This document shows positions 28,090-55,700 of a DNA stretch of 64,000 nucleotides, piece by piece (positions within the stretch are counted from its first letter, which is position 1; each line of letters starts with the position of its first letter). The notes below the pieces were generated by a model. The model searched no databases and had not been told where the DNA came from. It was given only the letters and a program-made list of their open reading frames with translations. The stretch spans positions 44,537 through 108,536 of the forward strand of contig JAZNVW010000016.1 in NCBI GenBank assembly GCA_045593025.1, read 5' to 3'. The stretch is from Ruminococcus sp. Its GTDB lineage: Bacteria > Bacillota > Clostridia > Oscillospirales > Acutalibacteraceae. The position numbers and the translations under genes were made by a program.

Positions 28090-28374
28090 TCAATCTTCTT
28101 TTGTAATCTTGTATCCCATAGATACAATCAACTTCACGGTTTCCATTGCTGTGTTGCGGTCGTAGTCCTTTTCGCTTTCAGAAAGCTCTGAATATGGCAC
28201 AAGACTCGGTGTGGTCTTTTTTGTATCATCGCGGAATTCTCCGTATGTCCAACCTTCATCGATTCTTCCCTTTGCCCATACCTCATGGACATTCTCTGCA
28301 ATTTTCTCAGACAGCAAGAGCAAATCCTGAGAAAGCACCACAGAACTCGTATCCGCAGGTTTTGGTGTATACAT
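28090..28374 (-). CDS. stand-alone RyR (ryanodine-receptor repeat) domain protein
   Basis: AENVHEVWAKGRIDEGWTYGEFRDDTKKTTPSLVPYSELSESEKDYDRNTAMETVKLI matches the RyR-repeat pattern. The ATG at 28374 is 6 nt after AAGGAGG; the ATG at 28380 abuts the RBS. Confidence 0.75.
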   Translation of the reverse strand: MYTPKPADTSSVVLSQDLLLLSEKIAENVHEVWAKGRIDEGWTYGEFRDDTKKTTPSLVPYSELSESEKDYDRNTAMETVKLIVSMGYKITKED

Positions 28375-28394
28375 ATTCATCCTCCTTCAGTAGT

Positions 28395-30872
28395 TTACTG
28401 AATCTTCAGAGTTTTATTCTCAGCATCCAGTTCATAAGGACTGTCGTATGCTTTATAAATGCAACATTTGCCCGAGGCTCTCTCAATTGCCAGCTTGTGC
28501 AGATATAAAGAGACTGCATCAAGCCTGTCAAAATTCTCTGCTTTTATACGAGCCAAATCAAGATTTGCATCCTTGCTTATTTCTGCCGGCATACCTGCTT
28601 CACACTCAATTTTGGGTGCATACTCATCACACTCTACAAGGCATGGATGAAGTTTCAAAGAAAGTTCCTTTGTCTTGTTTTTACCTGCAAAAGCAAAGGC
28701 ATCAAGCTGTGACTTTGTAGGCAAAGTAAATCCGCCTGTTCGGATAAAGGCGTTCCAGCGTCTGTGTTCAAGCCAGATAAGACGGTAATAAAGGTTTCTT
28801 CGTTCTTCTTGTGAAGGCAGGTTATCAGTCTTTGAAACAAGCTCACTGCAAACCAAACGAAGGTAATTGTTGAACACTTCGGGACTTTCTGATGCATTAT
28901 TGGCACCGTCAAAAACCTTTGACTTGGTTATTGCTCCTGCAGAAAAATATTTATAAGGTATATGCAAACCTCTTGCGATAGATGACCAGTATCCGTACTC
29001 GTCATCCACAAATCTTGTCATTTCCTTTTTGCCGTATACCTTATCTTCAGAGATTCTCTTTATGTATGTCTCGTTAAGCTCCATTGCTGTGCCGTAAGCT
29101 TTGGACATAAACACGTTTTCATAATTATACACATCGGCAAAATTACCGAAAGCATTCATATAAACCTTCTTGTTGTTCTGTTGTAAATTCAAGGTAGTAC
29201 AAACACCCTTGTCAAAAACAACATAGTTTATTACTGCTCTTCTGTTTGTTCTGTCTGTAAGCAAATCTCTGCCGATATACTGTCCGATTTTGTTTGCGAC
29301 AAATATGTTGTTTTCATCAGAACCAATAGCAACCACAAAGTAATCAGAATCGCACAATGCAAATTTATCGCCGTCAAATCTTGCTCTGAGGGCATCATAG
29401 AGGTTGCCTGTCATAACATCTGCCTGCTTATAGCGCAGAGTAAAATAAGGCTTTGCCTGCTCATCGGAATTACAGTAGATGCTTAAAAGTTCCGAAGATG
29501 CTGTTGATGCTTCTGTTTTGAGAATATCTGCATTAATCAGATTAACTCTGTTTCTGAAAGACTCCTCACTCTCCTGAGATACCACATTTATAAACAGGTT
29601 AACGTCAAGCATCTGACCCATCCAGTAAGTTGCAAGAAACATCTGCATACCAATCAGTCCGCTACCGATAACAGTAACGTTCAGAGTTCTGTCCTTTTCG
29701 CCTTCTCTTAAGTTTCTTCCCACCAAGGGCTCATAAAGGGGAACGTCGGAAAGAAGGTTATAAACAAGGTTTTTGTAGCCGTCGATAACTCTGAAAACAG
29801 GAAGCTTTCTGTTGTCTGCACCATATTCATTTTTCAGCTTAGTACTTATTCTGCCAACAAGCTCGTTAGCAGAAGGACTGTTTGAAAACAGGTACACATT
29901 TGAATCCAACAAGCACTCTTCTGCATCACTCTGAGATAACAAAGACATTGTGTGCAGGTTGTTTTCCTGATTCTCGTTCATAATCAGAAAATTAAGTCTT
30001 GTTCCCAACAGTTTGCGCAAGAAGCCTCTTACCTTTATATGGGCAATGTCTTCATCCATACAGAAAGCACCCATAGCCTTTGCTCCTGACAAAAGCTTAA
30101 CCGCCTCTTCGCATTCACAATCAGTATTCACGGAAGCAAAAATAAAAACAGGTTTCTTAATTTTACGTTTAGCTTTTTTGCTTACACTTGCTTTGCTGTC
30201 ATTGTCCTTTGCAAAATCAAAGTACAAATCTTCATCCAGAAGTCTGGATGAAACGATGTTTTTTTCGCCCTTTTCCTTTGCAGATTTGTAATTATTCATA
30301 ATACTCTGTGCAAGGGCAAAGGAGCTTTCGTTAAGCTGTGAAAAAACATAAAACTCATCCCAGAAAGGCAGAAGTCTTAATTTCATTCTGGGGAATATCT
30401 TTGTGAGTATATCAAAGATGATTGCGCCTCCTGCCACAGGTGCCAGCACAGTAACAATAGCCGCGTGAATTCTGTATATCTGTGTAACCCAAGGATATGA
30501 AGAAAAGATGCCCTGCTTCATACTGCGTGCCACAACTACAAACAAATTGTAATCTTCATCAACAGCAAAGGTACGCAAAGTCTGCACCAGACTTCGTACA
30601 ACGGACTCGCCCCAGTGAAGCATCACGGAATTATCTCCGATTGAATCTATAAAACCTGCATCGGAAACACCTGCTATAAGTGTATTATTAATATAAACTC
30701 CTGTTGCAAGTCTCAGAAGAAAAATAGAAACAAACAAGCCTGCAGAGAAAATAAGCAGATTTGTACTCACAGACATCTCTTTATTCTTTGTAAAGAAAAC
30801 TAAGGTCAGCACCGTACAAAATGCAAACACCAGCCAGGACGAAAGAAGCAGAACAAAAATCGTACTTGCCAT
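28395..30872 (-). CDS. polytopic membrane protein with a Rossmann-like (TrkA_N-type) segment and a C-terminal RyR-like module
   Basis: The ATG at 30872 lies 5 nt after GGAGG. The N-terminus has about 5 hydrophobic helices and a K-rich linker. It carries a glycine-rich dinucleotide-fold motif NVTVIGSGLIGMQ. The C-terminus (LIWLEHRRWNAFIRTGGF...LKLHPCLVECDE) echoes the EHxRW...hP.LV core of RyR repeats. Confidence 0.6.
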   Translation of the reverse strand: MASTIFVLLLSSWLVFAFCTVLTLVFFTKNKEMSVSTNLLIFSAGLFVSIFLLRLATGVYINNTLIAGVSDAGFIDSIGDNSVMLHWGESVVRSLVQTLRTFAVDEDYNLFVVVARSMKQGIFSSYPWVTQIYRIHAAIVTVLAPVAGGAIIFDILTKIFPRMKLRLLPFWDEFYVFSQLNESSFALAQSIMNNYKSAKEKGEKNIVSSRLLDEDLYFDFAKDNDSKASVSKKAKRKIKKPVFIFASVNTDCECEEAVKLLSGAKAMGAFCMDEDIAHIKVRGFLRKLLGTRLNFLIMNENQENNLHTMSLLSQSDAEECLLDSNVYLFSNSPSANELVGRISTKLKNEYGADNRKLPVFRVIDGYKNLVYNLLSDVPLYEPLVGRNLREGEKDRTLNVTVIGSGLIGMQMFLATYWMGQMLDVNLFINVVSQESEESFRNRVNLINADILKTEASTASSELLSIYCNSDEQAKPYFTLRYKQADVMTGNLYDALRARFDGDKFALCDSDYFVVAIGSDENNIFVANKIGQYIGRDLLTDRTNRRAVINYVVFDKGVCTTLNLQQNNKKVYMNAFGNFADVYNYENVFMSKAYGTAMELNETYIKRISEDKVYGKKEMTRFVDDEYGYWSSIARGLHIPYKYFSAGAITKSKVFDGANNASESPEVFNNYLRLVCSELVSKTDNLPSQEERRNLYYRLIWLEHRRWNAFIRTGGFTLPTKSQLDAFAFAGKNKTKELSLKLHPCLVECDEYAPKIECEAGMPAEISKDANLDLARIKAENFDRLDAVSLYLHKLAIERASGKCCIYKAYDSPYELDAENKTLKIQ

Positions 30873-30890
30873 AAAATCCTCCAAAAATTA

Positions 30891-33800
30891 TTAGTCAACA
30901 GAATCAAAGACCTCTTTAATCTCCGCTCCTGTAAGCTGACTGCGCTCAAGCAAAGCATTAACCAAAGCATCTATCTTTGCTTTGTTTTCAAGCATTATTG
31001 CCATTGTGTTGTCCAGTTCAGTCTTAAGCACGCTGTTGACAGCTTTTCTCACGTCATCTCCAAGCTGTGTCATATCCACTTGGTTTACGTCCATTACCGA
31101 AAGACCGAATTCCTCACTCATACCCCAGGAACATATCATATGCATAGCATAATAAGTGGCTGTTCTCAAATCAGAGGAAGGACCTGTGGAAACTCCGTCC
31201 TCTTCCCCATAATACATAAGCTCAGCACAACGCCCGGCAAGAGAAGTACGGATATTATTGATAACATCTTTTTTGGTATTAACCATTTTATCCTCGTTAT
31301 CATCGTGCATCATATATCCGCCGTGATTGCCGCGGGACACAATGGTAACATAAGAGGGGGTTTCTCCTGAAAGGTAGCACAGCAGGGTGTGTCCTGCCTC
31401 GTGTCTTGCAGTACGCAGTACAGATTCCTCGCTGTACTTTTTACTGTCACCGCTGTTAAATTCCTCAAAAGCCTCATCCAGAACTTCATCGGTAATTTTT
31501 CGCTTACCTTCTCTGAGCGCAGAACGAAGCGAAAGTTCCAGCACAGAGTCAAGATTAGCAAGGCTCTGTCCCATTGAACGCACAGCAATATTCTTTATAG
31601 TTTCCTCACTGATTTCAAAGAGAGGATTCTTTGCAATTTTTGCTCTGAGGTGCTCTTCACGGCTGTCCTTAGAAGGCAAACCAATATAAATCCGTCTGTC
31701 AAAACGTCTCATAAGAGCAGGGTCTAAGCTCTTGGCATTTCCCGAAACAACATCAAAGTTTGTCGCCGCAAGAACAAACACAGGCTTTGAAGAATCTGTT
31801 CTGAAGCCGTCCATCTCTGTGAGGAAAGCAGTCAGAGTTGCTTCACGCTCAGGGTCGGAGTAGCCTGTCCGCTCCTTTGCAATAGCATCTATTTCATCAA
31901 TAAAGATAATGGCAGGAGCGTACTTTCTTGCAAGTGCAAACAGCTCGTGCACCGCCTGTTTGCCTGCACCCATACTGCCCTTTAAGAAGTCATTGCCTTC
32001 CTGAGAAATAAAGGTAACATCAGATTCTCCTGCAGTAGCCTTGGCAAGAAGAGTTTTACCTGTGCCCGGAGGGCCGTACAGAATAATACCCTTGGGTGCT
32101 TTAATTCCTGTACCTGCATACTTTCTGGGATTCTTCATATAATCAATGAAGAACTGCAACTCCTCTTTGGCATCCTCGGCACCGCGTACATCAGAGAATT
32201 TCACATCAGGCTTGGACAGTCTTCCCATAATGCTGTCCCTGTCCTCTGCGTCAACTGCAGTATCCATATACAAATCAAAGAGCCTTATTACAGCTTTCTT
32301 ACCGTCTGCAGATATTGTCTGTCCTGTGGAGAACTTAATCATCTTGTTGGCTCTTGCAAGTTCTTTGAGAGTATACTGATAATGAATCTGGCTCTGCACC
32401 ATATTAAGCTGAGCTCTCAAAGCATCTGCATCATCAATATTTTCAATAATACCCTTACTGCCTTCTTTGTTGAGAGAAACAACCTCCTCTAAACTGAGAG
32501 GGTTTGAAGGAAGTTGCAGAACAAAAACAGGAATGTCTGTCTCCTTGGTAACATATCTAAACAAAGCTCTGCCGTCTGTTTCCATATCCTCAACATTGAG
32601 GTAATCTGTGATTTTCTGAGTAGCACCGAAATAAAAATCACAGATACAGGCACTTATTTTATTCTCCTTTATAATTTTTACTGCTTCTTCATAACCGCAG
32701 GCAGTATGTACAACCAAGTTATCCGACGCAGACTTAATCAAATCGGAAGTTTTGCTGTCTGCATATACAAGAAGCTCTACATCCGATGATGCTTCATACA
32801 TAGCCTCAATCTCAGGTTTGTCATCGGGAACTTCAACCTCAATGCTGATGCTCTCAATGTCCGCAACGCTATGCTGTGAATTTTCTGTTCCGATAAGTCT
32901 TAAAAGTTCAAAGAACTCGTTATCAAAGAAGGCTTTTGAGCGACTGCTGACAGAACGTGCGTCTGCGAGCCCTCCCTCGGAATAAAGTATTGAAGGATAC
33001 AATCTTTCGTCTATAGTTATAGAGTATCCGAACTTTTCTTTCACTTCTTCAACGTGGGTTTCAATATTCCTCTTTGCAAGCTTAATCAAATCACAGGCAC
33101 TCATATGATTAAACATAATAACATTGCCTGTTGCAAAACGGGAACATATAGCCGCAGGGAAGAAAGGCTCCTTGGTGTTGGGGTCAATGTCATTTTTCAA
33201 AGCATTAATAATAACCTTGGGTGAAACGTCTGAGAAAACTGTCTGCTCAGAATTTTCATACAAAGGTCTGCCTGCGTTGGTGGTAAATATAATTATTGCA
33301 TCCTTAAAGGACACATATTTCCTTGTTTTCTGGTCAAGACATCTGCCTGCATCCAGAATCTGCAGAAATTGATGTATAACCTTAAGGTGTGCTTTTTCAA
33401 TCTCATCGAAAAGGATAATACACTTAGGATGCTTATCCACAAATTCTGTCAACTGTCCCTGCTGTGCACCCTTATACACATCATCAGAACCGCAAAGTCC
33501 CACCAGAGAATCCTCATCGGAATAATCACTCATATCAAAACGCTTATAAGCTTCTCTGTCATACCCCAGATGTTCTCTGAGCTGTTCTGCAACAAAGGTT
33601 TTACCTACTCCGGGAGGTCCTGCAAAAAGAAAAGTTGCACGGGGTCTGCGGCGGTCCTTTTCCGTCATATCAGAAATCACAGCCTTAAAAAGCCCCTGTA
33701 TAACAGAATTTACTGCGTGGTCCTGTCCGAAAACACAGGAAAGAAGCTTTTTTCTTACCTTTTTCAGGTTTTCAAGTTCCCTTGCAAGCTGAACTCTGGG

Positions 33801-34379
33801 AGGCTCTGAATCCTTGTGTTCCTGCACAGAAACAGGCTGTGCTCCTTTAGCTTTATCAAAGACAAATACAGCGTCCGAATCAAGCTCGCCATCTTTGTTT
33901 GAACTGACTTCGCCCGAAGAAGACTTGTCATCCTGATGAGTTTCTGATTCAACACAGATTTCTTTACCTGTCACAAAGCATTCAATTAAATCAGTAGGCT
34001 TCTGGAGTATACAATCAATGAGTGTATCTGCTGTAATCAGCTCTTTGCCCTTCTCTGAAGCTGACTTGTTTGCACGAGACACAAGAATCTGATACTGTAT
34101 TGTTGCATCAAAGTCATTGCAAGGTTTATTCGCAACTGCAGTTGCAAGCTGAGAAATCCTCTCTGAAACATTACCCTCAAAAGGCTTAACCAGTGCTTTC
34201 AGAGCTTCAAATTCCTCTTGTAAAAACTTCTCCTTTATACAATCGCCGTTCATCGCATAAAAAGCGTTCAGAATAACAACCGAAAAAATATCCTCAACGG
34301 TTGCAACAGAGCCACCCCTTGCACCGGCAATCTCCTTTGCCTTATCCAATGCATATTCTAAGAAAGGACTAAAATTCAT
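30891..34379 (-). CDS. soluble chimeric AAA+ protease: Clp_N-like N-domain + ClpA/B D2-type AAA + receiver-like insert + FtsH-type AAA + M41 metallopeptidase
   Basis: The ATG at 34379 follows GGGTGG. First Walker A is FLFAGPPGVGKTF with ILFDEIEKAH and FTTNAG (AAA_2 type). Second module is ILYGPPGTGKTLLAKA, IIFIDEIDA, LDPALMRRFDR (FtsH type). A zinc site ARHEAGHTLL (HExxH) follows. No TM helix is seen. Confidence 0.75.
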   Translation of the reverse strand: MNFSPFLEYALDKAKEIAGARGGSVATVEDIFSVVILNAFYAMNGDCIKEKFLQEEFEALKALVKPFEGNVSERISQLATAVANKPCNDFDATIQYQILVSRANKSASEKGKELITADTLIDCILQKPTDLIECFVTGKEICVESETHQDDKSSSGEVSSNKDGELDSDAVFVFDKAKGAQPVSVQEHKDSEPPRVQLARELENLKKVRKKLLSCVFGQDHAVNSVIQGLFKAVISDMTEKDRRRPRATFLFAGPPGVGKTFVAEQLREHLGYDREAYKRFDMSDYSDEDSLVGLCGSDDVYKGAQQGQLTEFVDKHPKCIILFDEIEKAHLKVIHQFLQILDAGRCLDQKTRKYVSFKDAIIIFTTNAGRPLYENSEQTVFSDVSPKVIINALKNDIDPNTKEPFFPAAICSRFATGNVIMFNHMSACDLIKLAKRNIETHVEEVKEKFGYSITIDERLYPSILYSEGGLADARSVSSRSKAFFDNEFFELLRLIGTENSQHSVADIESISIEVEVPDDKPEIEAMYEASSDVELLVYADSKTSDLIKSASDNLVVHTACGYEEAVKIIKENKISACICDFYFGATQKITDYLNVEDMETDGRALFRYVTKETDIPVFVLQLPSNPLSLEEVVSLNKEGSKGIIENIDDADALRAQLNMVQSQIHYQYTLKELARANKMIKFSTGQTISADGKKAVIRLFDLYMDTAVDAEDRDSIMGRLSKPDVKFSDVRGAEDAKEELQFFIDYMKNPRKYAGTGIKAPKGIILYGPPGTGKTLLAKATAGESDVTFISQEGNDFLKGSMGAGKQAVHELFALARKYAPAIIFIDEIDAIAKERTGYSDPEREATLTAFLTEMDGFRTDSSKPVFVLAATNFDVVSGNAKSLDPALMRRFDRRIYIGLPSKDSREEHLRAKIAKNPLFEISEETIKNIAVRSMGQSLANLDSVLELSLRSALREGKRKITDEVLDEAFEEFNSGDSKKYSEESVLRTARHEAGHTLLCYLSGETPSYVTIVSRGNHGGYMMHDDNEDKMVNTKKDVINNIRTSLAGRCAELMYYGEEDGVSTGPSSDLRTATYYAMHMICSWGMSEEFGLSVMDVNQVDMTQLGDDVRKAVNSVLKTELDNTMAIMLENKAKIDALVNALLERSQLTGAEIKEVFDSVD

Positions 34380-34530
34380 ACAAACCACCCTTGTTCTCTA
34401 TACTACCTTAATTGTAAAACCATCTGAAATAACATTATGATATACTTGTTAATATTTTACAAAACATACCCTTTATTGTCAACACAGATTAACAGAACAA
34501 TGTAACTTTCAGGGGTTTTGTGTCAAAACA

Positions 34531-34568
34531 AAAACCACATCGGAATTTGACGTATCCGATGTGGCTTT
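34531..34568 (-). terminator. intrinsic terminator after the MATE gene
   Basis: On the minus strand, stem CCACATCGGA/TCCGATGTGG followed by TTTTT. Confidence 0.7.
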
Positions 34569-34570
34569 TA

Positions 34571-38646: not shown

Positions 38647-40266
38647 TTATGTTAGAAACTGCTCATAGGATGAGTCCATAAGAATTTCTATCTTATAACC
38701 CTTCCCCACTGTAATCTCTTTGAAGAGTCTACAGATTATCATTTTCTTTCTCTCAAGTGATGCTGTGTCAAATTCATCAGCCCAGCTAACGAACTCCTCG
38801 TAGTAGACATCGATGTTTTTCAGTTCAACTTCAGTATTCCTGAGTTTGCTCTGTTTCTCAGATATCTTTCTCGCATTTTCTGTTATCTTGGCTTTTGTAT
38901 TCTCAATTGCCATAGATAACACATCGGGAGTAAACTTGCTGTCACCTATCAAGGCATTTGCGATTTCTTCTGTAAGTTCACCGAGTTTTCTTTTCAGAGT
39001 TTCGGATTCCTTTTCGAGCTTCTTAATCTCCTGCCTTATCTGTGATAACTGAGCTCTGAATTTCTTTTCGATTGCAGCATCCTTGGGAGTAGCTTTGATC
39101 CTCTCGAAACATTTGTGCAGGACTTCAATAACATAGTCATCAACTATCTGAGCTGAATATACAGACTGTCCGTCACATTCATTTCTTTTCATAGCTTTTC
39201 CTGAACATAAGTATCTGTATTTTCTTGTGCTGTTATGTACGACACCATCTTTTGTTCTGTATGTGTCCATACTACTGTTAGCACATAATCGTTGACCGCA
39301 ATGAGCACAGTAAATATTACCACCTATCATTGTTGAGGACTTTGACCTTTGACTCATTTGTGTTCTCTCATCGTTCTTGAGTTTTCTTTGATCAAGTATT
39401 CTCTGAGCCTGTTCAAACAATGAGTCGCTAATGATTTGCAGTTCTACGATTCGTTTGGATTTTACTCCGCCCCTTACATAGAAGCCACAGTATAGAGGAT
39501 TCTGTAAGATTCGCTTAATAGTATTTGACTGGAATTTAGAACCGTTATGTGTCCGTATTCCCATACTATTAATATACTCTGCCATAACATAAGAACCCAA
39601 GCCCTCTTTTACGGTCTTTTCGAATATCATTCTGACAATCTCCGCCTCATCGGGGTCGACCTCCAGTGTCATAAGTTCCTTTCCTTTTTTATTTACGACA
39701 CCGCTTTTTACAAGTCGATATCCGAAAGGAGCACATCCGCCTGTATAGAATCCATCTTCAACTAACTGATGGAGGCGAGTCTTTACACGCATTGATGTCT
39801 TTTGACTTTCACCGTTGGCCTGCCAGAATCTTATGTAGTTCATGAGCTTGTCAACATGGCTGTCCATTCTCTGTTCGCCTTCGTTGACACTCCATACTTC
39901 TATACCGTGCTGAATGAACCATTCAACAACGAACGGGGTTTCATTGTCGATTCGTCCTATTCTGTCAAACATAAACACGAGAAGTATATCGAACTCTTTG
40001 TTTTCCGCTGCAGTTTTCAATTCCTGAACAGCATCTCGGTCATTGGCTGATACTTTATATCCCGAAATGCCTTGTTCTTGGTATTCTTTCTTAATCACCC
40101 ATCCGGGGTGTTGAGCTGCAAATTCTCTGCAAGCCTGCCTCTGCATTGGAATGTCATTCTTATCAACCTGTCCTTTGGTTGATACTCTATAAAGACAGTT
40201 GACGATTTTTGTTTCTACAAGTGGCGGCACAAATGCCGGAAATACTGTCGGTACGGTTGAGCCCAT
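38647..40266 (-). CDS. large serine recombinase (resolvase/invertase catalytic domain + recombinase/Zn-ribbon + coiled-coil)
   Basis: 539 aa with the catalytic motif LYRVSTKGQ, then FDRIGR, the Cys cluster CAHCGQRL...C and a C-terminal coiled coil. RBS GAGGT lies upstream. Confidence 0.9.
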   Translation of the reverse strand: MGSTVPTVFPAFVPPLVETKIVNCLYRVSTKGQVDKNDIPMQRQACREFAAQHPGWVIKKEYQEQGISGYKVSANDRDAVQELKTAAENKEFDILLVFMFDRIGRIDNETPFVVEWFIQHGIEVWSVNEGEQRMDSHVDKLMNYIRFWQANGESQKTSMRVKTRLHQLVEDGFYTGGCAPFGYRLVKSGVVNKKGKELMTLEVDPDEAEIVRMIFEKTVKEGLGSYVMAEYINSMGIRTHNGSKFQSNTIKRILQNPLYCGFYVRGGVKSKRIVELQIISDSLFEQAQRILDQRKLKNDERTQMSQRSKSSTMIGGNIYCAHCGQRLCANSSMDTYRTKDGVVHNSTRKYRYLCSGKAMKRNECDGQSVYSAQIVDDYVIEVLHKCFERIKATPKDAAIEKKFRAQLSQIRQEIKKLEKESETLKRKLGELTEEIANALIGDSKFTPDVLSMAIENTKAKITENARKISEKQSKLRNTEVELKNIDVYYEEFVSWADEFDTASLERKKMIICRLFKEITVGKGYKIEILMDSSYEQFLT

Positions 40267-40564: not shown

Positions 40565-42835
40565 TTAAGTAAAATAATCTTCCGTTTTCACTGATTTCAT
40601 AAATTCAGAAACTTCTTCAATGTTTCTTATTACAGGATATTTTTCCATTGCTTTGAACACTTTGCCTGTATATGACAAGGCTCTTGCCCTTGGGTCAAGT
40701 ATAGATACAACTCCTGTATCCGTTTCACTTCTGATGAGTCTGCCTACACCCTGCCTGAGTTTAATCAGCATATTCGGGGTACAATATCTGTTTATATACT
40801 CTTTCACATAAGCACAGCGATCCTTCTTTTCTTCCATCAGAACGTTTCTTATAGGGAAAGGCAACCTGACGATTATAACAGATGAAAGTCTATCACCGAC
40901 ACAATCTACACCTTCCCACATTGAACCTGAAGCAAACAAAATACCATTGTCTGACTTTTTAAAGTCTGAAATAACATTGTTAGTACCTCTTGTCATTTTG
41001 AACAGCTTATATTTCGAGAGCTTGTCCGCAAGCTTTCCGTATACTGTTTCCAACATTCTGTATGAAGTGAAAAGTATTGCCGTGTGTCCGTTAGTAGCTT
41101 TTATTATCTTTTCGATCTCTGTTGAGATTCTTTTGATATACTGCTCATTCTTGTTATCGGGAAACGGCAGTCCATGCGGAGCATATAATCGTGCATTCTC
41201 CCTGTAATTAAATGGAGACTCTGTTTTGGATTCTAAAATCAATCGGCTTTCAATATCTGCCAGACCCTTTTCTTCTTTGAAGAACTCAAAGTCTGTACCG
41301 TCTGACATCGTTCCGCTTGTCAGCACATAGCTTACATTTCTATCCCAAACGCTGTCTTTAAGTTGTTTGGTAATATCTCTTGGCACACTGCAAATGTACA
41401 TTTCGTTATTCTCGTCTGTATTTATCCAGACGATATTTGAAATATCATCTTTAAGGGCTGTCAGTTTTGTAATCAAACTCTTTCCTGTTATGGGCAAATA
41501 ATAATTTGCTCTGACTTTCAGATCTTCAATGCTGACAATTGTGTTTGCCATCTTATCAATAAGCGATGCGAGTGTTTTTCCAACATTGATAACAGTATAA
41601 CTATCCTCATCGGCATCAGAAAGTCTGCGAGAGCTTTTTATATATCTGAACAATTCATTATGGGTTTTATGTGCCATAGCAATTAAGTATTTATACTCTT
41701 GTATTCTTTTCTTATCCGAACACAACGTATGTACCGCATTGAGATATTCGGGAATATCACTTTCACAAAGAACTTCGCCAAATGTTGTTTCAGCCGCTTC
41801 TATCAGTTTATGTGCTTCATCTACCACAACAAAGTAACTATCTTTGATAACTCCTTTTTTACCCGGTACTCTGTTCTTCTGTGATGCAAGATACATATTG
41901 TGGTTTGTCACCTGAAAATCAATGCCAACTTCTTCTGTAGCATCTGATATATATTGTACATATCTGCAGAGTGAACGCTTTGCGCAACCTGAGCACGAAC
42001 CTTTTACGCAAATCCTGCTTTTGACGGCATTAGAAATTGTAATTTTATCAAGGTCAATATTGCTGTCGTTTTTAATCTTGGTTTCCAATGCAAAGATTTT
42101 TCTGCTGTTATTATCGGGATACTTGAGAATATTGGTAAGATAATCTTTATATCTATAAGAACACAGAAAATGTTCCTTACCTTTTCTAAGTACCGCCTTT
42201 AATGGCTTTGGAATTATCCTAAAACTCATCAGCATTGCCGACAGCTTCGGAATCTCCTGTTCCACTAAAGCTTTCTGCAATTCAATGCTCGATGTGGTAA
42301 TTGTAACAGGCATATCCTGTCCGTATTTTCTTTTATATACAAGTCTTGCTACAAGACTCGCAACCATATATGCAAGAGTTTTACCTGTACCGACCTCCGC
42401 TTCGCAGATGGCAACCTGTTTTTCTGTAAGACCTTTATACATTGTTTTTGCAAGGTCTATCTGAGCTTTTCTGATGTTGTAGCCGTAGCTTGGCATAACT
42501 ACATTGAAAATGGTATCTACCATTCCGATGGGATTATCAACCATCTCCTGAACAGTATCAACCTGACGGTTATCTTTTACTGTTTCCAATATATATGGTA
42601 TAAGTTGAGTGGCAGTTTCTTCTGTAAACTGTTCGCACGGCTTAACTGTTGTCACTACCTCAGAATCACCTGTAGCTTTATCGATAGCTATATATCTGAT
42701 CTGATTTCTGAGTGCAATATGATAAATGATAAATCTATCTTCAAAGGTAAAGTCGTACTCTCCCCCATAATAGGCTTTATCGCAATTAACGTAACTTTCA
42801 AATAACTCATGATCACTATATGTAAATTCAAACAC
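40565..42835 (-). CDS. DinG/XPD (Rad3)-family Fe-S DNA helicase
   Basis: Walker A is CEAEVGTGKTLAYM and the DEAH box is VVDEAHKL. A four-Cys cluster ICVKGSCSGCAKRSLC lies between them. C-terminal motifs are ILFASGSMWEGVD and QGVGRLIRSETD. The GTG at 42835 has an AAGGAGAA RBS 6 nt upstream; the listed extension to 43018 looks non-coding. Confidence 0.8.
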   Translation of the reverse strand: MFEFTYSDHELFESYVNCDKAYYGGEYDFTFEDRFIIYHIALRNQIRYIAIDKATGDSEVVTTVKPCEQFTEETATQLIPYILETVKDNRQVDTVQEMVDNPIGMVDTIFNVVMPSYGYNIRKAQIDLAKTMYKGLTEKQVAICEAEVGTGKTLAYMVASLVARLVYKRKYGQDMPVTITTSSIELQKALVEQEIPKLSAMLMSFRIIPKPLKAVLRKGKEHFLCSYRYKDYLTNILKYPDNNSRKIFALETKIKNDSNIDLDKITISNAVKSRICVKGSCSGCAKRSLCRYVQYISDATEEVGIDFQVTNHNMYLASQKNRVPGKKGVIKDSYFVVVDEAHKLIEAAETTFGEVLCESDIPEYLNAVHTLCSDKKRIQEYKYLIAMAHKTHNELFRYIKSSRRLSDADEDSYTVINVGKTLASLIDKMANTIVSIEDLKVRANYYLPITGKSLITKLTALKDDISNIVWINTDENNEMYICSVPRDITKQLKDSVWDRNVSYVLTSGTMSDGTDFEFFKEEKGLADIESRLILESKTESPFNYRENARLYAPHGLPFPDNKNEQYIKRISTEIEKIIKATNGHTAILFTSYRMLETVYGKLADKLSKYKLFKMTRGTNNVISDFKKSDNGILFASGSMWEGVDCVGDRLSSVIIVRLPFPIRNVLMEEKKDRCAYVKEYINRYCTPNMLIKLRQGVGRLIRSETDTGVVSILDPRARALSYTGKVFKAMEKYPVIRNIEEVSEFMKSVKTEDYFT

Positions 42836-43256
42836 TTTTGATTCTCCTTTTCTTCGATATATGAGCAACAGAATGGTATGCAGGAACCAGATCGGCTCCT
42901 GCACAGTAGTTCTATTGCTCATTAAATAAATTAGAGCATTCGAAAAGATGTAGAGTATCTCGCAGCATTTGTTATACCTTAAGGAATAACCGAGCTTCAT
43001 ATATAATGCAACAGGCATCCGCTCTCAGCCTGAACCACTATATCCCGTATCGCAAGGGCTGTGCCAACAGAAGTATCATTATTACCCACCGAGGTCATGG
43101 CTAATTGAGAGTCTGCTGTTTATCTCTCAACTCGGCACATAGTTTATCGCTCTCTCTTTCGAGGTCTTGGCGCCTATGCCCGACAGCTTTCCTTTCGGCT
43201 CTGTGGGTATTACCCTCTACATCCGTTTATTCAATTTTCAAAGTGCAAAGAAGGAT
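42836..43256 (-). ncRNA. candidate structured non-coding RNA or cis-element (class unknown)
   Basis: 421-nt gap between co-directional genes with nested helices. On the plus strand: CCGAG..TTGAGAG-12 nt-CTCTCAA-CTCGG (43090-43134). On the minus strand: GGCACAGCC..GGCTG..TGCC (43016-43067) and two GAAA-loop mini-hairpins (CCGAAAGG, CTCGAAAGAG). No convincing ORF. Confidence 0.3.
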
Positions 43257-45267: not shown

Positions 45268-46791
45268 TTACTTAATCTTTGCTCCACACGCGAAACAATA
45301 TCCAGAGTTTCTTTTTACAACAGCTCCGCATAAAGGACAAGACTTCATCGATTCTATCGAAGTCCGATCTATCGGTTTCTTCTTATCCTCTGAAGTCGCC
45401 TTAATTACAATTGGTGCTTCTTGATGCTTGTGTGGTATATCTTGTTTTATCTTTACAGTTTTATAACATACACTACAATAACGCTGAGACTTCTGCATAA
45501 TTGCACCACAATATTCGCAGCATACCGTAACATTATTTTGACTACTCGTTGTTTTTATATCAACAACCACTTTATCCTCTACATCTGTTGAGTTATGAGA
45601 AACTTCATCAGTAACCATTGAAGTTTCTGTTTCTATGCTTGTTGAATCTATGTCATCAAGCATAACAACTGTAGTATCTTCTACTTCGGACTCTTCTATT
45701 AACACTGTTTCTTCGTTCTGCTCTGTTTCCTCTAGAAACAAAGTAGCATCCGAGTTATCGTCAGGATGAAGAGCAATCTCATCAGAATCATCGCAATTAA
45801 TTACTATATTTGATATTCTTTCTTTGTCGTTCCCATCTAAAACATCTTTAAGAACACCCACAAGCTCATGAACATTTTGATATCTGTCCTTATATGATAT
45901 AGATAAACCTTTCATGAGAACATTCTCTTGATCAATCGTTATATCAGCATTAAACTTAGATGGTTTTTCTAAGCAATCATCAAAAACTCTCTCCATTGCA
46001 TCGTCTGGTGTTACACCTGTTATACACCTATATATTGTCGCACAGAGAGCATAAATGTCAGTCCAAGGTCCTTGTATCCCCTTTGAACGATACTGTTCTT
46101 CCGGAGCGTAACCTGGTTTTAACATTATTGAAAGACTTCTTCTATCTTCAAAATTAACATCTCTAGCAGCACCGAAATCCATCAGCTTTAATGTACCATC
46201 TTTTAGCAACATAATATTATCTGGACTAATATCTCTATGTATTAACCCTCTATTATGCACCTTTCCAAGAGACTCTAATAATGGCAACATCTTACTGATA
46301 ATATCAGTATAATCAAACACTGAATTCTCTTTAAGATACTCTTTAAGTGTTATTCCATCCACAAACTCCATAACAATATATGCAGTATTATTAGCCTCAA
46401 AGTAATCTCGAACATCAACTATATTTTTATCACCAGAGAATTTCGCAAGCACTCTTGCCTCACTTAAGAATTTACTCTTTCCATTCATAAAATACTCTGA
46501 GTGCTTTGTTCCTGATATCGTTATATCAGAGGTTATTTCCCCATATCTATTCGCATAACCGCTCGGATAGAATTCTTTAACAGCTATTCGCATATCAAGA
46601 TTTAAATCTCTACCAATATATGTAATACCAAAGCCACCTTCACCAAGTGCTTTACCTACCAAATATCTATTATTTAGAATTGTTCCAGGCTTTAGGTGGT
46701 GAGGAGAAGTACTTTCTAAACCTAACTTTTTACAATTCTCGCATACATCTTCATTACACTTGTGCATACAATTGTAGCAATAATTGTCCAT
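45268..46791 (-). CDS. cytoplasmic Hanks-type Ser/Thr kinase flanked by zinc ribbons
   Basis: N-terminal CYNCMHKC..CENC. Kinase motifs are GEGGFGITY, AVKEF, HRDISPDNIML, DFGAA and GYAPEEQ. An acidic linker follows, then two C-terminal CxxC...CxxC ribbons. No TM helix. Confidence 0.9.
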   Translation of the reverse strand: MDNYCYNCMHKCNEDVCENCKKLGLESTSPHHLKPGTILNNRYLVGKALGEGGFGITYIGRDLNLDMRIAVKEFYPSGYANRYGEITSDITISGTKHSEYFMNGKSKFLSEARVLAKFSGDKNIVDVRDYFEANNTAYIVMEFVDGITLKEYLKENSVFDYTDIISKMLPLLESLGKVHNRGLIHRDISPDNIMLLKDGTLKLMDFGAARDVNFEDRRSLSIMLKPGYAPEEQYRSKGIQGPWTDIYALCATIYRCITGVTPDDAMERVFDDCLEKPSKFNADITIDQENVLMKGLSISYKDRYQNVHELVGVLKDVLDGNDKERISNIVINCDDSDEIALHPDDNSDATLFLEETEQNEETVLIEESEVEDTTVVMLDDIDSTSIETETSMVTDEVSHNSTDVEDKVVVDIKTTSSQNNVTVCCEYCGAIMQKSQRYCSVCYKTVKIKQDIPHKHQEAPIVIKATSEDKKKPIDRTSIESMKSCPLCGAVVKRNSGYCFACGAKIK

Positions 46792-52780: not shown

Positions 52781-55700
52781 TCAAGAATCGGGTTGTTCTT
52801 TTGCTTTTACCAACTTAAGTTTAACAACATTATTATCATGAATATAGTAAGCATCTCCAACCTCAAGGCGTTTTCGATTATTTCGTATATCTTCATACGG
52901 AACATCAAAGGGTTTCAGATTATCAAGATCCTCAAAGAACAAAAGATGTTGTTCCTGCTTAACAGTTCTTATAGGTTCCGGAGCATCATATGACACAGAA
53001 GAATTAGAATAATTCGAGAAGATAATAGCGACATTCATACCTTTAAAACGAGATACAATATCATTAAACATGTCTAGAATGCTATAATCTTCACTAATCT
53101 TTTTGGCTACATCATTGTTTTGAATTATCATCAAAAGCAATTCAGAATTACCATTAATGCTTCCATTCTCGATCAAAGTGTTATATCGTTCTGTTAAAAC
53201 GGAATGCCATTCCTGTATAATATCAGTAACCTTATCAACACCTAAAGAATATGTAGTTACTAACTTACTTTCTTTAAAGCACTCAAGTTTTCTAGTAACA
53301 TCATCAAACAATACAACTTTCGCAGGATTGGTTTCAATATTGGATTCCAGAACATCGAATAAATACGCTAAGAAGTTTTTATGACCAGTGTTCGCTTTAC
53401 CGCACAGTCCTATGATTCCTAACTGAGAAATGTCTAAATAATAAGGCTCAACATCTTGATAGGTTAAACCAACAGGAACTTTGTATCCTTCCGATTGTGC
53501 ATCGAACTCATATTTTATCGCATCCATTGTTAAAACTGTCGGAATATAAGGAATTTGTTTAGCTTTTATGCCAATATATTTATCATTAATATTAATAACA
53601 AACTCTTGCATTTGCTGAACTCGTGCATACTCTTTTTCACCTTCAAAAGCTAAGTAGGTTTGACACTCAAGGATTCTTTTATCGACCTCTAATATGCAAC
53701 GTCCAGGCACCTCATCGGGTTTTAATGTTACATGATCAAATAACGCAGAGTATTCTGATGTATCATTACAACACAAGGCCATCTTGTTAGCAAAGTTAGA
53801 TAAATATCTATATCCGATACCAGTTGTCTGAGAGTTTGTAACAATAGTAGATATACCCACCGATAATCCTTCTCTTAAAATATTCAACAAGCTGTCATCA
53901 TCTGCAAGATACAACTCGATAAGAGCTGTTAGATTATCAATCATTAAATATATATGAGGTAGGTCACTATATCCAGCTTCAACATACGAAGAATATGAAC
54001 TAACGCCTACAGAAACGAGTCTTTCTTTTCTCGTTAATATTTCCGAAAATAAAAGCTTAAACATATTCTTTAGCTTTTCATCATCAGAAGAGCACACAAC
54101 CCCACCAACATGATTTAAATTCTCAAAGTTTTTCAATACCATTGAACCAAAATCTAGAATATAAATGGTAGATTCTTTGGGAGACGATGTTGAGGCAATC
54201 GTTCTTATTAAACTTTGTAAAATATTAGTTTTACCATTTTGTGCTGATCCTAAAACAAATGTATTTTTATTATCAAAATCCATTGATGCTACTCCCTGAA
54301 TTTGGTTGTCCGGATCATCGTAAATACCCAGGCCTATCAAGCTATTTTTCTTCATATTGGCTTTTGAATATTCAATATGTTTTGGTAGTGATGGCAAACA
54401 AATATTAGGCAACCTACTTATACCTTTTACTCCACAATAGTTATGTACATACTCGACGATTGATTCTAACTGTGTAAAAACAGAACCAGATGTCTTTTTC
54501 TTCTTTTGAACATAAATCGGGGTTCGTTTTCCAGCCGCACTCACCTCAAATAATGCAAATTCTTTAATTTCGGCTTCTGCCATTTTTTCAGGAGCACCAC
54601 TATACGCAGACTGAAACAATTCGAACACCTCGTTGTTTCCCACCTGTAAATAAGCGCGACCAGGTTCCTTTATTTCCGCCGCCAATGGAGATTTAATAAC
54701 CTCATTACTATCCTCTTGGCTTTGAACTTTTAAACACAGTTTAAATTTAGAGTTACTCCAGATCTGTTCATCGACCTGACCAGATGGCTTCTGTGTTGCT
54801 AATATTAAGTGAACACCTAAACTTCGACCAATTCGTGCTGCTGATATCAACTCTTTCATAAACTCTGGTTGTTCAGCTTTAAGTTCAGCAAACTCATCTA
54901 CAATAAGTACTAAATGAGGGATTGGAACCGATACTTTTCCTGCTTTATACTTTTGTATATATTTATCTATATGGTTTACCTCAGCCTCAGCAAATAGCCT
55001 TTGTCTCTTCTGCAACTCAGCTTTTATAGATTTAAGAGAACGATCAATCTCTTTTCCATCAATATTTGTAATTGCGCCAAGCATATGTGGCAAATCCTTA
55101 AACTGATTGGCCATTCCACCGCCCTTAAAGTCAATAATCACAAATGCTACTTCGTAAGGATGGAATATGGTTGCAATTGACAATATGTAGGTTTGTAAAA
55201 TCTCGGACTTACCCGATCCAGTGGTACCTGCAACCAAACCATGAGGGCCATGTGCTTTATCATGCAAATCCAAAGAGATAATTCCTGTTTTTGTAACACC
55301 TATTGGTGCCGCCATAGACTGAAAAACTTTAGAATTTGCCCATCTTTGATCAAGGTTCAAATCGTCAACCATTAATATTCCAAACATTTCAAAAAGTGAA
55401 ATGTTTTTTGTAAGAGCACCCTCTAACGATATTTCCTCTGTAAATATTGGTGCTAATAAGTTTACGATTTTTTTTGCATCTTCATCGCTTATTCCATTAT
55501 AAGTAAAATCAACTGTATCGTCCTGATTATTAGAATTGACTAATCTGCCCTTATTATAAGAATCAACAAAAATCAACTGTGAGCATCCTTGCGGAATTTT
55601 GCTTTTTTCTTCCGCCATAAATACAAACGTCGCTGCAAGGTCTTTTAGTTTGTTTACATAGTTGGATAACGGATGTGTTTGAAAGCCACATTCATCATAG

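Follow-up and report, generated by a model that had tools for sequence, protein, structure and literature searches.

A three-gene operon on the minus strand of a 64,000-nucleotide (nt) stretch of a Ruminococcus sp. genome (assembly GCA_045593025.1, contig JAZNVW010000016.1, positions 44,537 to 108,536; hereafter the window) was analyzed. It encodes a soluble AAA+ metalloprotease (gene A), a membrane protein with predicted Rossmann domains and an RyR-like end (gene B) and a stand-alone RyR repeat (gene C). The three-gene module was real and conserved, not an artefact, and the copy in the window is a three-gene derivative of a four-gene operon. It is tentatively read as a host-encoded module of gut Clostridia, assembled from exchangeable parts, that senses nucleotides and serves in conflict (of the anti-phage or abortive-infection kind) or in stress. 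The operon and its signals, in window coordinates, are as follows:

30891..34379, minus strand: gene A, soluble AAA+ metalloprotease, 1162 amino acids (aa) from the ATG at 34379, TAA stop at 30893-30891

28395..30872, minus strand: gene B, membrane protein, 825 aa, ATG at 30872, stop at 28397-28395

28090..28374, minus strand: gene C, stand-alone single RyR repeat, 94 aa plus stop, alternative ATG at 28380

34454..34482, minus strand: candidate sigma-70 promoter of the operon, TTGACA, 17 nt, TAAAAT, 11 of 12 matches

34525..34568, minus strand: terminator of the upstream MatE gene and operon boundary, GCCACATCGGA-loop-TCCGATGTGG followed by a T-run, after the MatE stop, kept in locus L174

28043..28083, minus strand: candidate intrinsic terminator 3' of gene C, AAAAAAAGAGCTGATTGAGTACTCTCAGTCTGCTCTTTTTTT, hairpin plus T-run, of which the inner stem was picked up by the scan

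The open reading frames (ORFs), the gaps of 18 and 20 nt and the flanking terminators confirmed the three co-directional genes as one tightly spaced unit, as had been proposed in an earlier sequence-only reading of this DNA (the original prediction). The 18 nt between the gene A stop and the gene B ATG contain a GGAGG; between genes B and C the gap is 20 nt, with a GGAGG 5' of ATGAATATG. The second ATG of gene C (28374) lies at a normal distance from this GGAGG and is better spaced than the ATG at 28380. The −35/−10 block of the promoter was kept in the closest relative, L174, where it stands 5' of a Can2-like gene, and the whole terminator-promoter block was almost identical base for base in that locus, which argues that the promoter is real.

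The gene order in all five syntenic relatives (L001, L012-L014 and L174) was MatE, Can2-like, protease, gene B, RyR, pyrophosphatase, DUF308 and TsaD. Comparison of window positions 34380-34570 with L174:506-1931 showed that the Can2-like ORF was cleanly lost, with the upstream terminator and promoter kept almost unchanged. Because the same promoter was retained and the Can2-like ORF of all five relatives is lacking, the window operon represents a reduced form of a four-gene operon, and not the full unit that the three genes had been taken for. The Can2/Card1-like assignment was based on a profile match to Can2 (7bdv, E=1e-5) that includes the CARF half, and in 11 of the 71 protease loci described below it is the gene that directly precedes the protease. 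Can2 and Card1 are known immune effectors activated by cyclic tetra-adenylate (cA4). The window operon itself has no CARF gene and the window no CRISPR-like repeats, which sets it apart from type III CRISPR ancillary genes; no cas genes were annotated in the Pfam-annotated relative loci, and none was present among the recurrent neighbour families scanned in the other loci.

The distribution of the system was scanned in one genome per species (185,579 species) with the protease-specific region as the query. Relatives of the gene A protease were detected in 309 of the 185,579 species (~0.17%), and the best 80 of these 309 were all Clostridia (Oscillospiraceae, Acutalibacteraceae, Ruminococcus and others), mostly metagenome-assembled genomes from herbivore gut. 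For neighbour counts, ORFs were called and their products clustered at 71 protease loci of species-representative genomes, and neighbours were scored if they lay on the strand of the protease and no more than four genes away from it. A gene B superfamily member was found at 34 of the 71 loci (48%), YbjN-like small proteins (~158 aa, usually a tandem pair) at 21, a Can2/Card1-like CARF nuclease at 20 (28%) and the small RyR gene at 18 (25%), and the full triad of protease, gene B and RyR was present at 15 (21%). In uncorrected Fisher tests over the protease loci, presence of the small RyR gene went together with that of gene B at an odds ratio of 8.9 (p=8e-4) and with that of the Can2-like gene at 5.4 (p=0.005). 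The genes were closely spaced, the protease-gene B gap having a median of ~26 nt. The triad recurred in distant genomes where gene B was only 20-35% identical. Conservation of the triad as a neighbourhood in other genomes, on which the original prediction had staked itself, was thus borne out.

The coupling of the RyR proteins to the protease, assumed in the same prediction, held in that the triad recurs, but proved not to be obligate. In metagenome loci seeded with gene B, its protease-free relatives adjoined transglutaminase-like giant proteins, a TIR-kinase, another AAA+ ATPase or a Can2 fusion, and in L002-L004 and L195 gene B was paired with a different AAA+ ATPase that has no protease domain. 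Because gene B relatives frequently occur without the protease, the coupling is best described as modular. At L033, L065 and L083, gene B is missing and gene C comes directly after the protease. Some loci have TIR-kinase, TIR-STAND, NACHT and ADP-ribosylglycohydrolase genes as neighbours. In 2.9 million viral contigs no full protease was found; the matches were limited to generic AAA_2 domains and a single, marginal match to gene B. The protease and gene B are not carried by phages, and an origin of the module from a phage or mobile genetic element was rejected on these results.

Other partners of the protease were also recurrent. A tandem pair of YbjN-like proteins (~158 aa each, weak likeness) lies directly upstream of it, at 70-220 nt, in L006:914-1884, L033:6871-7844, L024:8312-9282 and ~18 others, and YbjN-like proteins also accompany gene B and the different AAA+ ATPase in L002-L004; the pair could be adaptors or chaperones. 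A ~368-aa protein with weak zincin-like metallopeptidase matches was found together with a ~153-aa protein (L015:12652-13764; L005:5847-6335-type), and a 1734-aa protein with a transglutaminase-like core was found with 680-760-aa and DUF5640 neighbours (L036:2100-7304). At L005:6537-9563, a gene B relative, a NERD protein and a split protease are followed by a complete nicotinamide adenine dinucleotide (NAD) salvage set, consisting of a nicotinamidase-like Isochorismatase, NAD synthase, NMNAT-like CTP_transf_like and NAPRTase. These neighbours fit NAD-derived ligands of RyR domains, a suggestive but single case.

Gene A is a soluble hybrid in which an N-domain, an Hsp100 D2-type ring, a pseudo-receiver, an FtsH-type ring and an M41 peptidase follow one another:

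33930..34379, minus strand: N-terminal helical domain, residues 1-150, the most variable part, weakly Clp_N-like

33162..33647, minus strand: first ATPase module, AAA_2 or Hsp100 D2 type, residues 245-406, Pfam PF07724, 129 bits

32445..32780, minus strand: receiver (CheY-like) fold domain, ~residues 534-645, probably a pseudo-receiver, from AlphaFold2 (AF2) and Foldseek

31677..32087, minus strand: second ATPase module, classical or FtsH-type AAA, residues 765-901, Pfam PF00004, 158 bits

30909..31433, minus strand: Peptidase_M41 domain, residues 983-1157, HEAGH at 993-997, Pfam PF01434, 102 bits

The Walker A/B pairs of both ATPase modules and the HEAGH motif were kept across 30 homologues, and the GPPGVGKT and ILFDEIEKAH of the first module were invariant among homologues. 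Based on this conservation, both rings and the peptidase are predicted to be active. A Kyte-Doolittle scan of gene A identified no transmembrane helix and no hydrophobic segment above threshold. Like FtsH, gene A places an M41 zinc peptidase with HEXXH behind a classical AAA module, but it has a soluble helical domain at the N-terminus in place of the transmembrane anchor with periplasmic domain, and it adds this N-domain, the Hsp100 D2-type AAA_2 ring and the receiver-like domain upstream of the FtsH-like part. The AAA_2 module and the presence of two ATPase modules per chain are shared with the Hsp100/Clp two-ring unfoldases (ClpA, ClpB and ClpC), whose Clp_N domain the helical N-domain weakly resembles and from which gene A differs in that the first module is of the D2 type and the second of the FtsH type, the peptidase is fused, the M-domain is missing and a receiver fold lies between the rings.

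Two of the domains in gene A called for revision of the earlier annotation, which was otherwise essentially right. The best PDB matches of the N-domain family profile were the ClpA N-domain (E=0.011) and ClpC2 (E=0.031), and Pfam Clp_N was matched by 1 of 20 family members (E=0.006), but the window protein itself had no Clp_N match at E<=0.01; the Clp_N domain assigned to it thus stands as a faint family resemblance. The mean column identity of the N-domain was 36%, and 13-22% when compared with more distant subfamilies. The receiver-like domain between the two rings had been missed altogether. The AF2 model of residues 505-735 had a predicted local distance difference test (pLDDT) score of 83, and its top Foldseek matches were all response-regulator receiver domains (TM-score 0.74-0.83 to target). 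Asp581 at the end of β3 and a family-specific motif, YLNxEDxE..R, are invariant in this domain. The fold is that of a receiver, but the acidic pair, the Thr and the Lys of receiver domains are not conserved in the family. Because only the β3 Asp is invariant and the usual phospho-acceptor environment is replaced by the YLNxEDxE..R loop, the domain is best named a pseudo-receiver. A signal synthase with a TIR-like or cyclase-like fold had also been considered for this middle domain and was rejected once the receiver fold was found. At L008:6973-9811, L005:3712-5483 and L196, the protease is split into 2-3 ORFs, which are pseudogenes or frameshifted assemblies.

Recruitment of an FtsH-type AAA+ protein into a predicted conflict system has a precedent in the MoxR-vWA-FtsH ternary systems, which require MoxR and vWA partners and in which the first FtsH-type domain of the FtsH component is inactive (Kaur et al. 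2020, PMC7159879). Both rings of gene A are predicted to be active, with Walker A/B kept. Assignment to this class was rejected, as neither MoxR nor vWA was present in the Pfam-annotated loci or among the recurrent neighbour families scanned.

The Pfam search matched AAA_2, AAA and Peptidase_M41 in gene A and RyR in gene C, but gene B had no match in Pfam, PDB sequence or PADLOC searches. Gene B belongs to a large, unannotated family without a Pfam model, which comprised 2826 clusters (50% identity) at E<=1e-3 and 1024 at E<=1e-30 in an exhaustive profile search; a view of it as very rare, derived from 22 homologues in a word-indexed search, was dropped with this result. The following parts were delimited:

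30393..30872, minus strand: membrane region, transmembrane helices at residues 1-29, 33-61 and 134-160 (Kyte-Doolittle scan), long helices in the AF2 model

29148..29690, minus strand: second Rossmann domain, ~residues 395-575, GSGLIG (GxGxxG), conserved S432/E434 after β2, strand-helix alternation in the model

28398..28811, minus strand: C-terminal RyR-like module, ~residues 688-825, WLEHRRW...KLHPCLVEC...D.LD.VS

The membrane region carries the conserved motifs SLVQTLRTF.(V/M)DEDY and LAPVAGGAIIFDIL and the invariant residues R54, S94, D105, P145 and G149. An AF2 model built with 21 homologues (pLDDT 80, predicted TM-score 0.74) contained two Rossmann-type domains, and its top Foldseek matches were TrkA 4j9u (E=4e-4, TM-score to target 0.39) and the CASTOR and Slo1 gating rings. 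In the second Rossmann domain T400, G403 and G405 are invariant and E434 is nearly invariant, and the GxGxxG with a conserved Glu after β2 is the signature of a predicted adenine-dinucleotide site. TrkA_N of Pfam gave sub-threshold matches in gene B relatives (E 0.001-0.03) and none in the window protein. Gene B resembles the TrkA/KtrA and RCK gating rings (TrkAH, MthK, Slo1 and CASTOR) in its modelled tandem Rossmann domains with GxGxxG, these being its best structural matches. It differs from them in that the TM-scores are modest (0.37-0.41 to target), a Pfam TrkA_N match and a pore with selectivity filter are missing, and an RyR-like end is added. A K+ selectivity filter (GYG or GFG, TVGYG-like) is absent from residues 1-170, which separates gene B from RCK-gated K+ channels.

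An EH(R/M/C)RW motif was found near the C-terminus of every gene B superfamily member. Five shorter relatives matched Pfam RyR below threshold at the homologous position (E 7e-5 to 0.011, profile positions 18-73), and the short relatives retain 6 of 6 ligand-contact residues when aligned with the crystallographically characterized phage sponge RyR Tad. The window subfamily carries an inserted, more derived version of this end. When compared directly with the RyR alignment by hhalign, this version matched weakly (E=0.005, probability 7%), with HxxW and HP.LV in register, and the full-length homology of the subfamily to the shorter relatives was certain by the same method (E=8e-40). Because the direct profile-profile match is weak, the RyR-like call rests on transitive homology. 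The earlier description of gene B as a polytopic Rossmann/RyR-like protein is therefore retained for a membrane protein with three predicted transmembrane helices, as remote homology backed by a structure model, but gene B is not a Pfam-level RyR member.

By its profile match, gene C is a canonical single RyR repeat. It scored 123.7 bits against Pfam RyR PF02026 (cut-off 27.4, profile positions 1-91, E=4e-36), and its PDB profile matches were B. thetaiotaomicron 3NRT (E=5e-44) followed by the animal RyR1/2/3 repeats. Its mean column identity over 24 loci was 69%; in the same comparisons, the protease was ~45% and gene B 20-35% identical. The ligand-contact residues compared were H129, W132, K147, H154, K170 and D171 in RyR Tad numbering, and in an alignment with gp68 of phage CB1, H30, W33, R48 and D72 of gene C were retained among these positions.

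That bacterial RyR-repeat domains have no established function, as the original prediction stated, is outdated by two 2026 preprints, in which phage PF02026 domains bind the Thoeris signals 2'/3' cyclic ADP-ribose (cADPR) with nanomolar affinity or hydrolyse them, through a ligand pocket common to the animal RyR Repeat12 domain (PMC13232231; doi 10.64898/2026.06.04.730250). Repeat12 also binds ATP (doi 10.64898/2026.06.04.730250). Gene C shares PF02026 and the pocket HxxW, basic residue and Asp with the phage glycosidase RyDEP and the sponge RyR Tad, both anti-Thoeris proteins. It differs from them in being encoded by the host, in one operon with a protease gene and a membrane-protein gene, in carrying Thr55 in place of the phosphate-binding His and Tyr71 in place of the Lys, and in being closer to B. 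thetaiotaomicron 3NRT and the animal RyR repeats than to the phage forms. The 146 phage records with RyR homologues of gene C are distant (<60% identical, mostly 35-50% over half the length). The RyR repeat of MT836850.1, an unannotated 8.5-kb 'Bacteriophage sp.' contig from human faeces, is 59% identical to gene C over 97% of the length and far closer to it than other phage records; the contig may be a mis-binned bacterial fragment.

The class chosen for the operon, with tentative confidence, is a sensor-effector conflict module with a protease. The gene order, the domains, their conservation and the ligand-site residues are the observations on which this choice builds, and from them we infer the ligand, the membrane activity, the protease substrates and any immune role. 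Gene B would be anchored in the membrane by its three helices and would expose a cytoplasmic part consisting of a dinucleotide-type Rossmann site and an RyR-like pocket. It may act as a ligand-gated membrane effector, in which binding of an adenine-nucleotide signal, most plausibly an ADP-ribose-derived one, perturbs the membrane. Gene C, as a soluble dimer of RyR repeats, would bind ligands of the class proposed for gene B. It could buffer the signal or set a threshold, degrade the signal enzymatically or work as an adaptor that depends on the ligand; it may also pair with the single repeat of gene B and thereby mimic a two-repeat RyR domain. Gene A, the invariant core, is predicted to be a cytosolic two-ring unfoldase with an M41 protease and the pseudo-receiver as regulatory domain. 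It would control the partner effectors, namely gene B here and additionally the Can2-like CARF nuclease in relatives, by ATP-dependent unfolding or proteolysis, with activation, removal or reset of the effectors as possible modes. The ligand-gated proteolysis of the original prediction is purely conjectural.

The tight operon with its conserved promoter and the retention of the triad down to 20-35% gene B identity support a conflict module. Conflict systems are typically patchy in distribution, as here (309 of 185,579 species), and mix and match their genes; the protease varies most in its N-domain, and the genes are not phage-borne. The binding or cleavage of 2'/3'cADPR by phage RyR domains, the pocket residues kept in gene C (4 of 6) and in short gene B relatives (6 of 6), and the association of the small RyR gene with gene B are further points in favour. 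By analogy, the layout of gene B, with N-terminal transmembrane helices and a putative cytosolic nucleotide sensor, mirrors that of known membrane effectors, and its modelled fold resembles the nucleotide-gated TrkA/RCK rings. The membrane effectors Cam1, Cap1, Csx23 and CorA of type III CRISPR and the transmembrane effectors of Thoeris and CBASS have this layout, and a Can2/Card1-like CARF nuclease co-occurs in relatives of the window operon; the predicted sensor of gene B is Rossmann/RCK-like plus RyR-like, however, and not CARF, SAVED or Macro, and the operon has no CRISPR-cas, TIR or CD-NTase. A protease gene beside a nucleotide sensor and/or a membrane effector is also seen in CalpL-CalpT-CalpS and in bacterial gasdermins with their protease, which provide a working analogy for proteolytic activation or release. 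Gene A differs from these in being an AAA+ M41 protease and not Lon-like, caspase-like or subtilisin-like, and its sensor would act in trans; cleavage here is suggested only by analogy.

Several observations weigh against this reading. Seventeen of the 71 protease loci have none of the four recurrent partners, and most gene B relatives in the gene B-seeded metagenome loci occur without the protease. The flanks of the modules were mostly housekeeping genes, with TIR_2 in 2 and ADP-ribosylglycohydrolase in 2 of the 138 neighbours sampled, and the enrichment near defence islands that had been put forward as a check was not seen in this sample, although some individual loci are rich in TIR, NACHT and ADP-ribosylglycohydrolase genes. 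A signal-generating enzyme (TIR, Cas10 or CD-NTase) is absent from the operon and was not among the listed families of the window scan, and a CRISPR array scan of the window was negative. The RyR-like end is weakly detectable in the window subfamily of gene B (probability 7%). In gene C, Thr55 replaces His154 and Tyr71 replaces Lys170 of RyR Tad; because both substitutions are near-invariant in the clade, the ligand of gene C may differ from that of RyR Tad. PADLOC-DB v2.0.0 gave generic AAA-domain matches to gene A only (IetA, PDC-M37B, DolB and TRIP13) and none to genes B and C. The suggestion of a conflict system in the original prediction is favoured by the Can2/Card1-like nuclease in 5 of 5 syntenic relatives and 28% of the protease loci and by the occasional TIR and NACHT neighbours, but not by island enrichment.

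The operon was also, as had been stated, not recognizable as any named system. Neither PADLOC nor the literature search names it, and no description of the gene A protease, of gene B or of the operon was found in the literature searched. A Thoeris system, which combines a TIR-domain ThsB with a ThsA-type effector, does not correspond to the three proteins, which had no TIR, SIR2, SLOG or Macro match; TIR genes adjoin some related loci. In the PADLOC scan of the 42 other window proteins, only kinase families appeared among the 25 of 61 families listed.

Four other explanations were weighed against the conflict module. It is unlikely, although it would account for gene A being the only invariant component of the loci, that the protease itself is the signal-activated effector, with gene C and the RyR end of gene B sensing a nucleotide and switching on or targeting gene A through its N-domain or pseudo-receiver, so that host or phage proteins or a regulator are degraded. 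CalpL, a cA4-activated protease, is the model for such an arrangement. The loci L033, L065 and L083, with gene C directly after the protease and no gene B, agree with it, as do the position of the receiver-like domain ahead of the FtsH-type ring, as in NtrC/NtrX-type regulated AAA+ proteins, and the 69% mean column identity of gene C, which would fit a dual constraint by ligand and conserved partner. However, the small RyR gene is missing from 53 of the 71 protease loci and every recurrent partner from 17, the receiver of gene A has no phospho-acceptor environment, and the effector-like nature of the usual partners, a nuclease and a membrane protein, would be left unexplained. We consider it rather improbable that control is toxin-antitoxin-like and needs no dedicated second messenger, such that steady AAA+ proteolysis holds down the levels of toxic effectors (gene B and, in relatives, the Can2-like nuclease as well) until infection or stress, sensed as a change in ATP/ADP or NAD+ by the Rossmann and RyR sites, halts degradation. 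The absence of a synthase from the operon would be expected in that case, RCK/TrkA domains are known to sense ATP/ADP (PMC6987127), and ATP binding has been described for the RyR Repeat12 (doi 10.64898/2026.06.04.730250). The pairing of gene B with a protease-free AAA+ ATPase (L002-L004 and L195) also counts in its favour, suggesting that unfolding is the shared need. The window lineage, however, dropped the Can2-like gene yet kept the rest, and the strong conservation of a separate RyR protein is left unexplained by such a scheme.

A housekeeping role, either in lineage-specific membrane-protein quality control or in ion homeostasis, with an FtsH paralogue serving a TrkA-like regulated transporter, likewise has little probability. 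It draws on the housekeeping flanks, on the syntenic position across five related genomes, on the resemblance of the gene B fold to TrkA and Slo gating rings and on FtsH-type proteases being classical quality-control enzymes. The restriction to only ~0.17% of species representatives, the highly variable gene content and the Can2-like nuclease, TIR and NACHT partner genes speak against it, as do the limitation of gene B to three transmembrane helices, the lack of a K+ selectivity-filter motif in its residues 1-170 and the lack of a membrane anchor in the protease. Counter-defence cargo of a mobile element, with gene C as a Thoeris-signal sponge like RyDEP and RyR Tad and its neighbours as unrelated cargo, is very improbable. 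The characterized RyR domains of the bacterial world are only phage anti-Thoeris sponges or glycosidases (PMC13232231; doi 10.64898/2026.06.04.730250), and distant RyR homologues occur in the 146 phage records. These homologues are, however, <60% identical and mostly 35-50% over half the length, and in the 2.9 million viral contigs the protease was never found in full and gene B was matched once, marginally. Five relatives have the operon at the same chromosomal site, between MatE and pyrophosphatase/TsaD, and no integrase or tRNA adjoins the operon.

The locus is a compact host system that links an unusual soluble AAA+ protease, and in relatives a CARF nuclease, to two kinds of RyR protein: a free repeat of high conservation and a member of a large, unannotated membrane-protein family with an RyR-like end. 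As of mid-2026, the only RyR domains shown to bind or cleave Thoeris cADPR signals were those of phage counter-defence proteins. A response of the module to nucleotide signals would, if true, provide a new receptor class and a new protease-controlled logic in bacterial immune signalling, and would link two messenger families in one operon, cyclic oligoadenylates via CARF and ADP-ribose-type signals via RyR. A bolder and somewhat doubtful extension is that the operon belongs to the first host-side RyR-domain immune pathway. RyR pockets would there be receptors for an alarm signal of ADP-ribose-derived or related adenine nucleotides, one pocket fused to a transmembrane-Rossmann effector and one free, and a dedicated Clp/FtsH-hybrid protease would license or reset the membrane protein and the Can2-like nuclease. 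Phage RyR sponges would then have been captured from such host receptors, and the pocket of the animal RyR Repeat12 would descend from an ancient immune sensor.

A tRNA scan of the window was negative. Apart from the operon, positions 38600-64000 of the window had a low GC content (33-38% versus ~42% elsewhere). This region probably corresponds to an integrated element or to a type VII secretion-like cluster; a PASTA/Big_3 kinase in it runs off the window end, and its other recognizable genes are as follows:

38650-40266: serine recombinase, at the start of the low-GC region

40568-43018: DinG-like helicase

45271-46791: Ser/Thr kinase with double zinc ribbon

52784-57295: EssC-like FtsK/SpoIIIE ATPase, 1504 aa

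57576-58631: ParA/MinD-like ATPase

Two gene B loci elsewhere (L006 and L007) are also located near FtsK/WXG100 genes.

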